Shown here one piece after another: positions 4,941-62,403 of a stretch of 64,000 nt of DNA. The notes beneath the pieces were generated by a model. That model ran no database searches and had not been told where the DNA came from. It saw only the letters and a list, made by a program, of their open reading frames with translations. Positions within the stretch are counted from its first letter, which is position 1; each line of letters begins with the position of its first letter. This DNA comes from Eledone cirrhosa. Lineage: Eukaryota. Position numbers and translations under genes: made by a program. Where the stretch lies: assembly GCA_964016885.1 (NCBI GenBank), contig OZ024741.1, positions 108,934,001 to 108,998,000 of the forward strand, given 5' to 3'.

Positions 4941-5714
4941 ATATAAATGAGAGGTATAGAGATTGTTTTAGCAAGAAGCTAACGGCATTCTATAACATAT
5001 ATGCGACTATAACGTCAAGATGGGAAAAGTAGTTAACGAAAGATTTAGGAAAAATAACTCAAACTCATCTCAAAAGAGAATCAGGATATAAATTCATCCA
5101 CAGAATTTAGTAAAATCCAGGGAAAATCTATAGACCTTTAACTCATGATAAAATAAAGTTTGAAACACTTATCCTTCAATTTGGAATAACATCAAATGCT
5201 CTGTATAGTCTTAAAAGACTATTTCATGAAAACTTTCAGTGGAGATGGTCACGGTTGGAATTTCAATCATCAGCAGAGCTCAACAGAAAACCAGGGCTCT
5301 CACAGTAATATAATCCGAAAAAGGGAATTCTAAAACTGGCTAGTTCGCCTTCATGTGTATTTAGGAAAAAGCACATGAGGAAAAAACGGGGCTAGTGACG
5401 TCAGGATGGAAGTGAATGTTTATTTACAAGAAATAGCAGTCAAATACATTCTGAAAAAAAATTCAGTAAAATAGCAATAATTATCACAGTTTTTATGAAA
5501 AAAACCGGGATTAGTCACAGATAGTTTAAGCACTCTAGGAAAAGAATCCGAGTATAAATATAAATGAGAGGTATAGAGATTGTTTTAGCAAGAAGCTAAC
5601 GGCATTCTATAACATATATGCGACTATAACGTCAAGATGGGAAAAGTAGTTAACGAAAGATTTAGGAAAAATAACTCAAACTCATCTCAAAAGAGAATCA
5701 GGATATAAATTCAT
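4941..5714 (-). mobile_element. Non-coding, direct-repeat-bounded element in (TA)n carrying an HHR (retrozyme / Penelope pLTR-like)
   Basis: Identical 157-bp repeats at 4941-5097 and 5558-5714 (period 617), (TA)n on both sides, HHR inside. Confidence 0.75.
5198..5279 (-). ncRNA. Type I hammerhead ribozyme
   Basis: Minus strand: GCUCUG-CUGAUGA-U-UGAAA...UUUCA-U-GAA-AUAGUCUU/AAGACUAU-A-CAGAGC; 6-bp stem I, intact CUGAUGA and GAAA boxes, AUA triplet. Confidence 0.8.
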
Positions 5715-7263
5715 ATATATATATATATATATATATATATATATATATATATATATATATATATATATATAGAGAGAGAGAGAGAGAGAGAGAGAGAGAG
5801 AGAGAGAGAGAGAGAGAGGGGCAAGGAATCTGCGGTTCTGAGACCAGGGAGGACACTAATCATGGGAGTACTAAGGGCATAGGGAGATGTAGAATGAGTA
5901 TAGAGTTATATAATTCCCGCTCGCGGTGCCAAGCGGTTTCGGCTTGCTGAAGTCTCAAGCCGAAATCTTGCCACGAGCTTGTCAGACATCATGTTACATA
6001 ATAAGGTTACGTTCCCGAGGCAATCCAAATTGAAGTAACAAGGGAACGGACAAAGTTGATGTTCTTGAAGCCTTTGCCCGTTACCTTGCGAGCCCCAATT
6101 CACCTACACATCCTTGCGCAGGCGTAAATGTAAAGGAAGTTGACCAGTCAATAACTTACGCCAAAAGACAACAAAACTAGCTTAAGCAGATACCCCGCAC
6201 GTAACCCAATCAATCGCCCCCATCCAGGCCGGTAAGGTGACAGGGTGACAGGGTTCGCGCCAGCCACTTGGTTGTAGTTTACGGTTAGTCGCACTTCTAG
6301 CGGCAGCCGACCAAAACTCTCTGGTAGTGGAAGTGAATAAGTTTCAATAGGTTTCAATACTACCCCTAAATTATGCTTGGACAATAGAATTGACCATCAT
6401 CCGCGAAGAGAATAGAAACTTTTTCTAGGGTCTAGATATTATGGTTTCACAATGGAAATCAAAATTGGTAATAGGAATGAAAATTAGTTAAAATCTTGAT
6501 TAAAGTAAATAAAAATTATAATAAATAGGAAGATGTGTAAATTATAGTTAGAAATTATGAAAGGGGATCAATAGAGGATATTACAGAAATATTATCCATA
6601 TATTGAATAATAGTACCGTACAGAAGAATGGGAGATAAATTTAAAATATAAAATATAATAATTAGGCAAATAATTATTTGCCTAATTAACTGATTACAAT
6701 CAGTTAATACCTTCTTCTATCACATGAATCAAAAACAAAAAAAATACCTAGATACAAGTGAGAGACGAAATATATTTGAGAAGGAAGGAAAATAAATAAA
6801 AAAAAGCATACATATATATGGACATGGCAATGAGGGTAGAAGTGGTGCAAATAGTGATTTCAATTACATTAACAATGCAGTGGCAATGTTAGTCAATTTT
6901 GTCCATGTAATGTGCATATAAAATTCCTTGTCCGTCCGTTATCGGATGAAGTGAGGGGGCTTCGGTTCTAGTCCTATGGGTGAAATTCAGACTGCTAGAG
7001 GAAAATAAGGGGTTTCACGTTGCTTATTGGTCCGCTTATTTATCCGGTCGAAAGCTTGTTCATAATTTTAAGTCTGTCCAGTGGTAGGGATATCCAGTAT
7101 GTCTAATCAGCCTCACGGTAGAGGGAATTTCCGGGTTTAGTTGATAGCTGGTGCCTTCACATCTTCATATATATCGCGTACATATTCAATTCAAGCACTC
7201 AACTACACACACACACACACACACACACACACACACACACACACACATACATATATATATATA

Positions 7264-7339
7264 GATGGCTGTGAAACTACATCACGGGTCTATCTCTATA
7301 TGTAGAGAGATAGGGCCGTGATGTAGTTTCACAGCCATC
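7264..7339. repeat. Near-perfect 76-bp palindrome between (TA)n tracts
   Basis: GATGGCTGTGAAACTACATCACGG ... CCGTGATGTAGTTTCACAGCCATC. Confidence 0.9.
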
Positions 7340-8575
7340 AATATATATATATATATATGTATGTGTGAGTATGTGCGCGCGCGTGTATACAATGTGATTT
7401 CTCTTCAGATGAAATACTGATTAGATTGAAAAAATGATATTAACAACAAACTTTTGAGAAGATTTTACTGCCTCAAACGAGTTTGCCTCTCATGAGATTT
7501 TTCTCGTGTTTTTCATTGATAGGGGCCTCTCATCTATAACGAAACTCACTATCAAAGGAAGTTGTTCAGGAATTGAACTGATAAACTTATGTTTAACACG
7601 TTGCCAAGAAGGCCACGGGATTTCATAATATTAGCCTGGGAGCTAAAATCTTCCTTGATCTCTTATAGCTGTCAATTATGACGATTGTTGTGAAGTTGTT
7701 TCTCTTATAGATTTAATGAAAAACGAGAGTAGAAAAGAATGAAAGAAAATATCAAATGATTGTTTGTGATGATAATATTAATTGTTTTAAGTCGCTGTTG
7801 ACGTTATCTGTTATTAGAATTACTAAATCCTGACAGTTGACTTTTAATAACTCCATACTATTCTGTACATGTTCTATAATAAACATACAATAGATGTATT
7901 CAGTCAGAAGCCACAGCATACTTACACACATGCACCCATAGCATACACACCCCTACTTGTTAGCAAGAAGTGCTAACTATATATATATATATATATAAAG
8001 TGAGGAGGTGGGTAACTCGAGAGAAATGGAGGAGTGTGAGGGACAAAGATTAACTCGTCTAATATATTTGTACATATTGACATAGAAATAATATATATGA
8101 ATTCGTAGAAACATCTACATAAAAACACTCAGTCACGATCAGTTAAACTTACATTTATAATATTTATGAATACATTGATACATTCAAGTACAACCACTAT
8201 GATATGGCTATAAGTTCGAGTGAAAGATTTAGAGCGAGAAAATGAACGAAGCGGTGAAAGAAAGGGAGAGTTGAAAAAAGAGATTTAAGAAAGTTTGAAA
8301 TAGAAATAAAAAATAGACATAAGAATGAAATGACAATGTTTTATTTTAAAACACTCTTCTGTGTTACTTATTTCTACTACACACATCCAAACTCCATGAG
8401 ATCTTTTAGTCTTTTCCCAACTTAATTCATAAATTATTGCTTTACCAGGCAAACCAAGGACTTGGAAAGTTTATAGATAGTTGTGGGATTGTTCTATATT
8501 TCTGTGTAAAATCTTAAATCACTTTCTTGAAAGAGAGCTGCATCAACAAACATTTCGATTATAGGGATGAATCAG

Positions 8576-8800
8576 ATTGGTAGATTGACAGAATCATTAG
8601 ACTATCAGAAGAAAATTCCTTGTTGAATTTGTGCCAGCATATTTACGTTCTGAATTCAAATCCCTCCGAATAAAATTTGCTTTCATTCATCTGAGTTAGA
8701 CGTAATAATGTACAAGTCAACTGCTTTAGCTGATACAACAGTATAATCGACTAAACACCCTTCATAATTTCTCTTCTTATGTTTATGTTGTAAACAATTC
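8576..8800 (+). mobile_element. Degenerate SINE family A relative
   Basis: gattgacagaatcattag...ttctgaattcaaatccc...tttcattcatc; diverged. Confidence 0.55.
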
Positions 8801-60435: not shown

Positions 60436-61207
60436 GGGAACAACATGTCTTCGACTCCGAGAAATGTATAATATATTTTCCGCTTATCTGCGACACAGAT
60501 ATGTGTATGTTTTGTAGTCTATTTAATTTTTGTATGTGTTTAGAAATAGTTTTTTTATGTGCGTGTTTGCTGTTTCTTACTTCGTATTAGTTCAGCCCTG
60601 AGCTATAACATGCAGATAATATTTTCGAATAATTAGGTTCGACCAGAGATCAATTGTTCCATATATATCATACTTACAGAAGATAATAAAATTGTTCGTT
60701 CAATCATTTAGTTGCTTATTTTGTTAATCTGTTCTTGTATACTATTTTTCTTGAGATGACAGAGATGGTGGATGAGACCAGTTGTAATCGGTAGGAGTTA
60801 GACAACTCTGGTTCGCCCTTCATTTTTTTGTTACACTAAATTCTCTTTTAAATTAAATAGCATATCTCAGAAAATGTTCTGAATGAACATGATGTCAAAC
60901 ATGCTTCTACGGAGATCAAGCAATGATATCTGCTTTTTACTCATCCCAACACGTAGAAGGACTGACATCCACGGACCAAGAACACTGGAGTACTCAAATC
61001 TAACTAATGGGAAATTTAATCGTCTGTGTTAGATGTTTATCCCACCCGGACGCCTACTATCACTGCTATTGAAGCTAACAGACTATGGTGGGACATATGT
61101 ACCGTTGTCGCCTCTTTTAACAGCATAGTTAATTGTGTACTTGTGAGGGTATTTATAATATATTCTCATATAGTTCCCAACGTTATCACTATTAACGTTT
61201 AACATAG

Positions 61208-61422
61208 AGCGGTGGATTGGCAGAATATCTGCCGTCCTACTATTCGTAGACCATTGGGCAAAATGTTTTGCTCTTTACATTATGAGTTCAAATCACGCCG
61301 TCAGTTGTGTCTTTCATCCATTTGGTGTCGATAAAATAAAGTAGCAGACAAGTACTGGGGCTGATATAATTGATTTTCCCCTCTGGCGAATTGTTGGTCT
61401 TGTGCCTAAAGTTGAAATTATT
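61208..61422 (+). mobile_element. Degenerate SINE family A relative
   Basis: gcggtggattggcag...gagttcaaatc...gtcgataaaataaagta. Confidence 0.75.
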
Positions 61423-62311
61423 TAACTTTTTCCAGAATAGTGATTGACTATTTCTGTATTCTCGTCAAATATAAACTTTGTTCTGTGATACCATAGAGAA
61501 ACATTATTCCCATGCTACGGTTTTAAATAGTGTTGGGCTTTTTAGGCTTTATATCTTTTAAAATCATCGCTGTCAGATCAGCTTCAAACAAAGATAAATG
61601 AAAACTCGGTGATGATGAAGTCTTAGGGTTATTTATATTTTTATCGCTCTTTTCTATGGCAATTTAGGTTGGTTTATGTGTTTTCATAAAATTGATTAAC
61701 ATTTCAGGACTTGGAATAACAATTGCTATCTGTGACAACAACGATGGATAACTGTTGTCGAAGCTGCTTAGCTATGAAGTTGTTTACGTTTACACGGTTT
61801 TTGTCTCACTAAATAATTATCTGCTTCATATAACCAACAGGAAGGTTTTCACGATGTTTTTGATAGCAGCGAATTAAATGTTGATAAGAATGTAAAGACG
61901 GACTGAAGTAACCAGATTACTCATGTCGTTTTAAATATACTCACAATTGGTTGTATTACTAGTGTCTGTATTAGTGTTGTCATCAGTGTTTGTCACGACC
62001 ATAGAAACTCGGTAAGACATGAATGACAAGAAATATTTCATATAATCCGGTTTAAATAAAGGTTAGCTTGCCAAGTAAAATAGATTCTTTTATATAAAAA
62101 AAAAAAATGCAGTAGTTGCGGATCTATATTGCGTTAGCTCAGTATAATTACAGAAAAAGTCTATAACACGCAATTTTAAACGGTTCGCTATAACTGAAAA
62201 TATGTTGATGAGCTAGCCATCTTTTAGAATGAATGTACATATTTAAATACATATGTGTGTATGTGTAAGCATAAATGTGTGTAAGCATATATATATATAT
62301 ATATATATATA

Positions 62312-62403
62312 TATTAGAATAACAGATTAAAGTTTAAGCAAATAATCGCTGCTTTCACCCTTAACGGGATCTTCTGAAACTTTATTAATCTGTTATTTTA
62401 ATA
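62312..62403 (-). ncRNA. Non-canonical hammerhead-like motif, copy 2, closed by a long stem I
   Basis: AAAGUUU-CAGAAGA-UCCC-GUUAA-GGGU-GAAAGCA..UGCUU-AAACUUU inside an about 25-bp imperfect inverted repeat. Confidence 0.55.

Follow-up and report, generated by a model that had tools for sequence, protein, structure and literature searches.

Hammerhead motifs beside (TA)n microsatellites in Eledone cirrhosa are probably remnants of Penelope-like elements

The hammerhead motifs described here are best explained, with a probability of roughly 0.86, as sequences in the pLTR 3' ends of Hydra and Neptune Penelope-like elements, and of ORF-less tandem elements likely borrowing the enzymes of these, left beside (TA)n as 5'-truncated copies through likely TA nicking and copying in. 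The window, meaning the whole stretch of DNA that was analyzed, comprises 64,000 nt of Eledone cirrhosa (GCA_964016885.1, OZ024741.1, 108,934,001-108,998,000, forward strand). An earlier note had marked eight hammerhead motifs in it, all of type I and from several unrelated families. Each was found at its position and strand and can be drawn as a type I fold or parts of one, but only one of the eight passed a strict descriptor, and the families, though multiple, number six, not eight. The observation is thus partly confirmed. The features are as follows:

4946..5713, minus strand: family F insertion, 1.2 units of a ~630-bp tandem repeat, (TA)n on both sides
5198..5279, minus strand: family F type I hammerhead, canonical core, C3 at 5273, 8-bp helix III
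9656..9752, plus strand: extra family E2 3' end starting just past the ribozyme, between two TA tracts
9844..10229, no single strand: family B head-to-head pair, 3' UTR of an element assigned as Neptune-type
9844-9997, inverted: short-end arm of this pair, 37-nt tail missing
9995-10229, plus strand: sense, long-end arm of this pair
10031..10069, plus strand: family B minimal hammerhead variant, U3-A8 core, A13C, palindromic helix III
10313..10372, no strand assigned: extra fragment, 3' end of a seventh hammerhead-bearing family, core absent
20118..20510, plus strand (sense arm): family C, ~486-bp ORF-less tandem unit, long end
20118-20176, inverted: short arm of the family C insertion
20256..20342, plus strand: family C type I hammerhead, canonical core, C3 at 20261, near-palindromic helix III
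20694..21510, minus strand: family D, 5'-truncated C/A-rich 3' UTR of an element assigned as Neptune-type
20783..20814, minus strand: family D minimal hammerhead, canonical core, ACGU palindrome, 2-bp stem I
30923..31250, minus strand: old decayed family E1 3' end, upstream boundary approximate
31027-31126, minus strand: family E1 hammerhead, U3 opposite G8 in this copy
52725..52850, plus strand: family E2 3' end with half hammerhead, between two TA tracts
52922..53185, minus strand: family A, truncated 3' UTR of an element assigned to the Hydra clade, short end
52938-52988, minus strand: family A hammerhead variant, U4A, inside the preceding feature
62315..62498, no single strand: family A head-to-head pair, short-end ribozyme arm joined to an inverted long 3' end
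62329-62383, minus strand: family A hammerhead variant, U4A, short end of this pair

Every one of the eight motifs is a member of a multi-copy family; those at 52938 and 62329 both belong to family A, and those at 31027 and 52731 represent subfamilies of family E. All eight sites listed earlier stand, but the E2 fragment at 9656..9752 had been overlooked. The remark that no motif lies inside the LINE (RVT_1 and endonuclease) or the Helitron (Helitron_like_N and PIF1) also stands, because core matches there are loose, with just 0-2 contiguous stem I pairs. An island repeated at 24425 and 28190 was considered as a further ribozyme element and rejected, as it corresponds to the tail of an old SINE-like repeat; its relatives lie mostly outside TA.

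The strict descriptor called for a core of CUGANGA or UUGANAA, then GAAA and then UH, with at least 4 bp in stem I, at least 3 bp in stem II, and helix III as a hairpin or palindrome. Only the motif at 5198 passed, and a relaxed version allowing one change passed this motif and the one at 62329. Over the whole window, the strict form gave one match against none in 50 local dinucleotide shuffles, and the relaxed form two against four in 40 shuffles. The type I core (CUGANGA...GAAA...UH, or its U3-A8 variant) is present in the window copies at 5198, 20256, and 20783 and in the majority of family E, and it is broken by U4A in family A, A13C in family B, U3.G8 at 31027, and loss of the 5' half at 52731. 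U3-A8 with A13C (10031) and U4A (52938 and 62329) are family-wide states. The 31027 copy is decayed, since its U3 faces G8 whereas most family copies read CUGAUGA; the half hammerhead at 52731 keeps GAAA, helix III, the cut site, and the 3' strand of stem I, with no CUGANGA box. Single-sequence folding was weak (z-scores of -2.2 to +0.4, only 5198 falling below -2), and among the 150 matches listed of 370 from an Rfam scan of the window there was no hammerhead family, only miRNA-model noise on TA/TG repeats. As most window copies are truncated, variant, or decayed, we regard them as insertion fossils rather than eight working ribozymes.

The picture is clearer at the scale of the genome. A systematic 0.8-Mb sample gave 55 strict matches against 0 in each of ten shuffles (8 Mb in total), a rate far above the shuffled level. 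Relaxed matches in the sample numbered 74, five of them overlapping GAT-repeat artefacts, and clustering produced 26 clusters, one of which (fam18) looks like a minisatellite false positive. Three patterns together recovered 119,764 motifs genome-wide (40 per Mb; 20,699, 67,266, and 31,799 singly, against 0, 167, and 16 for the reversed patterns), from which we estimate a total of 150,000-200,000. More than 20 families with different cores are present, some of them young with long open ORFs. The three-pattern count is near the 126,247 hammerheads reported for axolotl, whose genome is roughly tenfold larger, and well above the more than 6,000 reported for coral. We claim no record, because Schistosoma SM-alpha repeats may reach a similar or higher hammerhead density. 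Literature searches on octopus and cephalopod hammerheads returned no census, although the supplement of PMC7229834 and Lunse et al. 2017 may hold counts; in a repeat annotation of Octopus vulgaris, hammerhead and ribozyme had 0 mentions.

The earlier note also placed all motifs within or beside (TA)n. In order of position, they lie 254, 161, 140, 141, 133, 8, 32, and 15 nt from the nearest (TA)8, so that seven of eight are within 200 nt, against 13% of non-microsatellite window bases, but one is at 254 nt. In the 0.8-Mb sample, 30 of 39 insertion events lie within 200 nt of (TA)8 against a background of 16.8%, and 10,000 within-locus permutations gave a mean of 10.7 and a maximum of 23. A SINE control had no TA enrichment (15 of 85), (CA)8 proximity was seen for 4 of 39 events against 5%, and (GA)8 was slightly enriched as well (6 of 39 within 300 nt, against 3.1%). 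The association is both genome-wide and specific. Element ends also abut the tracts: with a library of 282 of 326 entries, redone without a SINE-bearing entry and with family F dropped on length, 131 of 176 element-end segments adjoin a TA block (null mean 10). Each family has one short and one long end, and the 3' ends are fixed and adjoin TA. Inverted pairs with unequal ends were found at 22 of 24 loci, after 11 of 37 rows with an unscored end were dropped. Read by eye, the sequence runs on into TAT at each of the eight internal end points that could be read, with TAC instead in another copy of one, but short TAT matches are common in AT-rich DNA. No empty insertion site was seen.

We assigned family A to the Hydra clade of Penelope-like elements from motif features. 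In six of six loci where such an ORF was read (eight were fetched), the hammerhead lies 931-950 nt downstream of a 706-713 aa ORF; two loci (L353 and L357) have a second copy upstream of the ORF, and full pLTR-ORF-pLTR copies exist. The ORF carries RWR, DKT, CxCx5C, CxxC, and CxH. There is agreement with Hydra-clade elements as described by Craig et al. 2021 (PMC8557442) in the C-terminal endonuclease, RW(K/R) (RWR here replacing RWK), DKT, the CxCx5C linker, CxxC, CxH, a hammerhead in the pLTR, and (TA)n insertion. Family A differs from known Hydra elements in its family-wide U4A, clear pLTRs, ~3.25 kb between ribozymes, and 90-nt tail. Hydra-1_Obim of Octopus bimaculoides is set apart from it by its description, being given as 2,507 bp with (TA)n preference and no pLTR in the supplement of that paper. 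A preferred inversion junction at family A stem I, seen in query-selected copies, was dropped because 0 of 9 sample copies show it.

Families B and D appear to be Neptune-type, judging by a CX2-5CxxC linker ahead of GIY-YIG and a DKG motif, although Nematis has such a linker too. The window copy of family B is 99.4-99.6% identical to a copy (L109) with an RT-GIY-YIG ORF ~1 kb upstream, and family B follows the ends of Neptune-type ORFs at nine loci (L039, L041, L054, L057, L059, L097, L103, L109, and L257). For the family D copy, identity to L286 is 90.9% over 832 nt, and L286 has the pLTR-ORF-pLTR layout with a hammerhead in each of its two repeats; the family D hammerhead of the window has a bulged A ahead of a 4-bp stem II. 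Both families share with Neptune elements the RT plus GIY-YIG with a CX4CxxC linker (Cervera & De la Pena 2014, PMC4209133; Craig et al. 2021), and with the Neptune hammerheads described in PMC4209133 the minimal type I cores, palindromic helix III, an extra base before stem II, the U3-A8 variant, mostly solitary or opposite-strand copies, and many families per genome. The A13C of family B differs from those hammerheads, and the Eledone families reach ~10^4 per family, where that source gives ~2,000-9,000 minimal motifs per genome. As in Penelope-like elements, partial-tandem pLTRs with a hammerhead occur (L286, L353, and L357), together with inverted 5'-truncated copies with two end points. 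A link between the families and RT plus GIY-YIG ORFs, as the note had proposed, was thus found as a single ORF with RT and C-terminal GIY-YIG for A, B, and D, but E gave only weak matches and C and F no ORF. Pfam matches were obtained on Neptune-type ORFs, and the A and D ORFs were recognized mainly by motifs and tblastn; the GIY-YIG search had 10,597 candidates, 150 of which were scored, and L281 gave a weak RVT_1 match alone.

Family E is weakly linked to a Hydra-like ORF by two short upstream protein matches in the right orientation (32-50% identity; L088 and L205). E1 copies are 72-87% identical, the E2 window copy is 96% identical to another locus (L298), and full E2 copies carry the U3-A8 core.

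Families C and F are ORF-less tandem units with one type I hammerhead each, and we consider them retrozyme-like, as far as DNA can tell. Family F arrays of 7 and at least 13 units have no ORF attached; its 40 scored copies are 99-100% identical, the 3' end is constant at 328 nt past the core, and the variable 5' ends adjoin TA in 18 of 26 scorable rows (15 of 23 with overlapping loci merged). At the base of stem II its hammerhead has a U.U, a trait shared with axolotl HHR_Amex2, and the predicted cut is after A17 at 5204; 5' ends fall at the cut site in 1 of 26 rows, leaving no cleavage footprint. The family C hammerhead has a long stem II insert, and in the 20256 copy a private change disrupts the third pair of stem II. 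Head-to-tail ORF-less units with one type I hammerhead also characterize animal non-LTR retrozymes, for which a Penelope origin has been proposed (Cervera & De la Pena 2020, PMC7229834; bioRxiv 10.64898/2026.07.22.740005). The units here are 486 and 630 bp, compared to 170-400 nt in the former and 51-972 bp in the latter (Li et al.), and unlike the retrozymes described there, C and F have fixed 3' ends at (TA)n and Penelope-style inversions. That the units have no ORF and did not match the collected 3' UTRs counts against the explanation, and their dependence on Penelope enzymes is presumed.

Covariation, which the note had put forward as a check, is seen between subfamilies. Three-stem covariation of the type I fold is supported in F, the B clan, and E. 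Family F shows a compensatory U-A to C-G change at 10.2-11.2 in 20 of 20 sibling loci chosen by the 5' side only; this sibling was first indicated by contigs from four sequencing runs of unknown kind. In the B clan, T-A is replaced by G-C in 6 of 29 distinct sequences and stem I shows swaps as well, and sister Neptune families have GAAA at the place of A13C with stems I and II compensated (the L057 row, with wrong coordinates, was disregarded). In E, subfamilies covary at the core between C3-G8 and U3-A8. There is none within C or D; in A, across 64 distinct sequences, two pairs each show a single change on both sides. Variation within families is mostly neutral decay, and RNAalifold recovered only parts of the fold from family alignments.

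A mechanism can be proposed in which elements likely nick TA repeats and copy themselves in, which is why 5'-truncated copies sit beside (TA)n. The GIY-YIG domain would nick the tract, and the freed 3' end would pair over ~3-7 nt with a UAU motif that lies within the RNA 15-330 nt past the 3' side of the ribozyme. Reverse transcription would begin there and mostly abort early, so that the ribozyme region is copied most. If both strands were cut and priming took place at the two sites, the product would be a head-to-head pair, short at one end and long at the other. The ribozyme would probably act on tandem transcripts at a slow rate, either in dimeric form or assisted by protein, and is probably dispensable for insertion; most genomic copies are inert fossils. 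According to Frangieh et al. 2024 (PMC11167929), the lizard element PAc (Anolis Poseidon) likewise has an AT-rich target nicked on both strands in vitro, two internal start sites defining the tail, a ribozyme upstream of these starts, and a hammerhead that is dispensable and protein-assisted. Tails are ~37-165 nt here and 30-40 in PAc, and the start sites here begin with TAT in phase with the target, whereas those of PAc are reported as non-homologous to the cut DNA. The suggestion that microsatellites act as landing pads is supported by the TA association, the hit rate, the covariation, and the ORF links, and neither of the two outcomes named in the note as refuting it was observed. The idea itself is not new, with insertion into (TA)n published for Hydra and Naiad and a microsatellite bias for Neptune (PMC8557442).

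Chance folding in AT-rich DNA could seem sufficient, given that this genome has a (TA)8 tract roughly every kb (804 in 0.8 Mb) and that, at a threshold of z < -2, seven of the eight window motifs show no advantage in folding over shuffled sequence, but the shuffled, reversed-pattern, and SINE controls, together with the fixed position of the motifs in pLTRs, refute this reading. The elements might instead make or lengthen the tracts by slippage, telomerase-like addition, or short TA target duplication, leaving them partly as footprints. Long tracts are frequent at 3' ends, the RTs of Penelope-like elements are relatives of telomerase (PMC8557442), and 170 of 586 TA blocks (29%; null 10) adjoin a recognized element end even with an incomplete library. 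We nevertheless think this improbable, as in non-inverted copies TA also adjoins the variable 5' breakpoints, at which no priming by the RT takes place, no TA run separates the tandem units, and 71% of TA blocks have no recognized element end.

A separate matter is whether the fold of families A and B is still catalytic. U4A and A13C alter positions where Perreault et al. treated changes as disqualifying, so the two families may not cleave. Their cores could then be a protein-binding or folding signal, or could simply be carried along because the priming site is close. The 28-nt core of the 62329 copy, with U4A, has 20,699 exact matches in the genome, so that U4A is fixed in a family that is young and has long open ORFs; all B subfamilies share A13C, catalytic mutants of the lizard element insert unimpaired in vitro (PMC11167929), and Naiad elements thrive without hammerheads (PMC8557442). 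Yet a second family also has U4A and a third has U4C, their stems being preserved; in a viroid, U4C is reported to slow the ribozyme while leaving it functional, and stems covary between B and its GAAA sisters. Loss of catalysis is thus a tentative reading that we somewhat doubt; it concerns just two of six families and is compatible with insertion of Penelope-like elements at TA repeats as the main explanation.

This kind of system is already known, and it is the scale that makes it useful. In the literature consulted we did not find this scale, high-copy families fixed for U4A or A13C, TAT at priming sites, or so large a share of TA blocks abutting element ends, although Lunse et al. 2017 and the PMC7229834 supplement may list U4A or A13C variants. 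A bolder view, which we consider unlikely as a whole, is that the ribozyme load of this genome, at 150,000-200,000 or more hammerheads in more than 20 families, ranks among the largest recorded, that nicked (TA)n pairs with a UAU signal and is lengthened so that elements build their own target microsatellites, and that the most successful families have relaxed the core (U4A, A13C) to a protein-dependent or non-catalytic signal. The many families with different cores provide a natural panel for what the hammerhead does for Penelope-like elements, and the two-ended insertions with end points starting in TAT give a testable model of microsatellite targeting. Because at least 29% of TA blocks adjoin element ends, the consequences extend to the microsatellite markers of this genome and to its repeat annotations.

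Each of the roughly eight hammerhead-like motifs reported from the window by the earlier note was recovered, and every one belongs to a multi-copy family (995 to about 2,400 first-look candidates, with 40 scored per search). These repeat families, A to F, are listed below by window start.

Hammerhead-like motifs of the window
5198, minus strand: family F, passes the strict type I descriptor
10031, plus strand: family B, double core variant
20256, plus strand: family C, decayed copy
20783, minus strand: family D, stem I of just 2 bp
31027, minus strand: family E, decayed copy
52731, plus strand: family E, half copy
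52938, minus strand: family A, decayed copy
62329, minus strand: family A, accepted once the descriptor is relaxed by one change

The motifs had been ascribed to several unrelated families, and six are indeed represented, fewer than eight as E and A each supply two motifs. The description of all of them as type I holds in strict form (core CUGANGA or UUGANAA, GAAA, UH, minimum lengths for stems I and II, and helix III as hairpin or palindrome) only for the motif at 5198; the other seven fail, and a single relaxed change raises the total to two of eight. Folding of the individual window copies was weak.

To place these motifs in the 3.0-Gb assembly, where the window is part of contig C2, an unbiased sample of 80 evenly spaced 10-kb stretches, 60 of them from the four largest contigs, was compared with ten shuffles in which microsatellites were held in place and local dinucleotide content was preserved. 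There were 55 strict matches in 28 of the 80 stretches, compared to none in any shuffle. By exact pattern counts across the whole genome, which cover some families only and leave stems I and II unchecked, the family A core occurs 20,699 times (reversed control 0), canonical cores carrying a 4-nt palindrome-type helix III 67,266 times (reversed control 167), and U3-A8 cores that have ACCGGU 31,799 times (reversed control 16). The sample extrapolates to 206,000 strict matches genome-wide (bootstrap 131,000-292,000), but because it over-predicts the exact-pattern counts about 1.4-fold, we scaled this figure down and estimate, by extrapolation from 0.8 Mb, about 150,000 strict motifs, or near 200,000 with variants. 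The 355 relaxed matches formed 26 clusters, 20 of which are represented in the unbiased sample.

Covariation of the stems across copies was present in family F, the B clan and family E, with little within A, C and D. In family F, all 20 loci picked by the 5' strand of stem II show the matching 3' change (U-A to C-G), sister families of the B clan exchange pairs in stems I and II at the same UTR position, and family E splits into C3-G8 and U3-A8 subfamilies. Variation inside A, C and D is mostly unselected decay, which is what dead copies would show. The U3-A8 core and a U.U at the base of stem II are natural variants that have already been described (PMC4209133, PMC7229834), while U4A or A13C as the fixed state of high-copy families was not found in the portions of the literature examined. 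Core position 4 has also been altered independently, with the stems kept, in clusters fam15, fam17 and fam20 (U4C in one, and U4A in two beyond family A).

The proposed enrichment near (TA)n was borne out, as 30 of 39 merged events lie within 200 nt of (TA)8, compared to 16.8% of non-microsatellite bases; within-locus permutation of these events placed 10.7 of them there on average and never more than 23 in 10,000 permutations. An abundant SINE-like repeat used as a control was near (TA)8 in 15 of 85 cases. Near the 39 events, (CA)8 and trinucleotide runs showed no enrichment and (GA)8 a weak one. Using a library of natural 3' ends sourced from loci outside the sample, we found that 131 of 176 matched 3'-end segments adjoin a TA block (null mean 10), compared to 12 of 107 SINE segments, and that 170 of 586 TA blocks adjoin a matched element-end segment. 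The variable 5' ends of family F adjoin TA in 18 of 26 rows, which fits insertion into an already existing tract.

Families A, B and D could be linked to ORFs with a reverse transcriptase (RT) and GIY-YIG, as had been suggested, by position and ORF content. A GIY-YIG search of the genome returned 10,597 candidates, and long ORFs among the matches have the Neptune layout of RT, CX4CxxC linker and GIY-YIG. The 3' UTR of one Neptune-type ORF is matched at 99% identity by family B, which lies 0.7-1.2 kb past the stop codon at nine loci; at locus L286 family D occurs in both pseudo-LTRs flanking a frameshifted Neptune-type ORF. Family A lies about 935 nt downstream of a 713-aa ORF, with a second copy upstream of the ORF at loci L353 and L357, and the linked protein carries RWR, DKT, CxCx5C, CxxC and CxH, the marks of the Hydra clade in Craig et al. 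(PMC8557442). A genome search with this protein gave 36,897 first-look candidates; the 150 scored were 96-100% identical and many lay in open frames of 500-940 aa, which shows that this family expanded recently. Family E is weakly linked to a Hydra-like ORF, at two loci. No ORF accompanies the tandem units that make up families C (about 486 bp) and F (about 630 bp); F arrays reach at least 13 units, and scored F copies are 99-100% identical. Two further kinds of ORF-less tandem unit with a hammerhead, about 311 and 467 bp in length, build long arrays, some of them in mirrored head-to-head arrangement, in the first 6 Mb of contig C1 and at loci L235, L241 and L246. One Neptune-type family, found 3' of the ORF at loci L091 and L105, contains extended degenerate TA/TG arrays within its 3' UTR, and some microsatellite-like DNA is therefore copied along with the element; its hammerhead combines a U3-A8 core with a very long stem II.

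Downstream of the ribozyme, two fixed 3' end points recur in most families (for A at about +25 and +115, for C at about +74 and +187, among others); D and F show mainly one. In 22 of 24 loci the two arms of a head-to-head pair have different end points (11 of 37 rows were left out for want of a scorable end). Since sequence continues past these points in upstream pseudo-LTRs and tandem units, the points lie inside the RNA; the continuation starts with TAT in all eight readable cases, one of which has TAC in another copy. We infer a model in which an endonuclease would cut (TA)n, the freed end would prime at an internal UAU site of the element RNA, and synthesis would mostly stop early. A lizard element has been reported to have an AT-rich target cut on both strands and two internal start sites, with a protein-assisted hammerhead that is not needed for insertion in vitro (PMC11167929). 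The family F copy in the window runs for 1.2 units across intact ribozyme sequence, implying an uncut multimer or circle as template.

The window has no Penelope-like ORF within its 64 kb; its other content is a LINE, a Helitron, a 45-bp satellite and numerous microsatellites. The satellite (12113-15859) has 83 copies and is open in several frames, and a LINE with two ORFs and AAT-repeat ends is present in no fewer than two copies, nested or in tandem, at 32850-44300. Within a 6.7-kb degenerate TA array (21511-28189), a 121-nt island occurs twice (24420 and 28186), the copies being 100% identical and separated by 3,766 bp, a sign of recent local duplication; the island is the tail part of an old SINE-like repeat, and a further relative lies at 48240. 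A perfect inverted duplication at about 7260-7340, with arms of about 38 bp and a CA-type tract on either side, may represent the ends of another element, paired head to head. A single CUGAUGA box 3' of a TG tract at about 19490-19515, with no matching GAAA or stems, is possibly a decayed hammerhead.

Much of this has precedent. Minimal hammerheads in pseudo-LTRs are known in thousands per genome, from many families and frequently on opposite strands (PMC4209133), and retrozymes and their proposed Penelope origin have been published (PMC7229834). Insertion into (TA)n is known for nearly all Hydra families and for Naiads, as is a microsatellite bias of Neptune elements (PMC8557442), the supplement of which includes a Hydra family of Octopus bimaculoides that prefers (TA)n. 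Among the sources covered by our literature search, no hammerhead census for a cephalopod was found. The association of hammerheads with TA tracts is real, genome-wide and well controlled, and it is explained by known element types; the elements seen here are further members of an established kind, present at an unusual scale.
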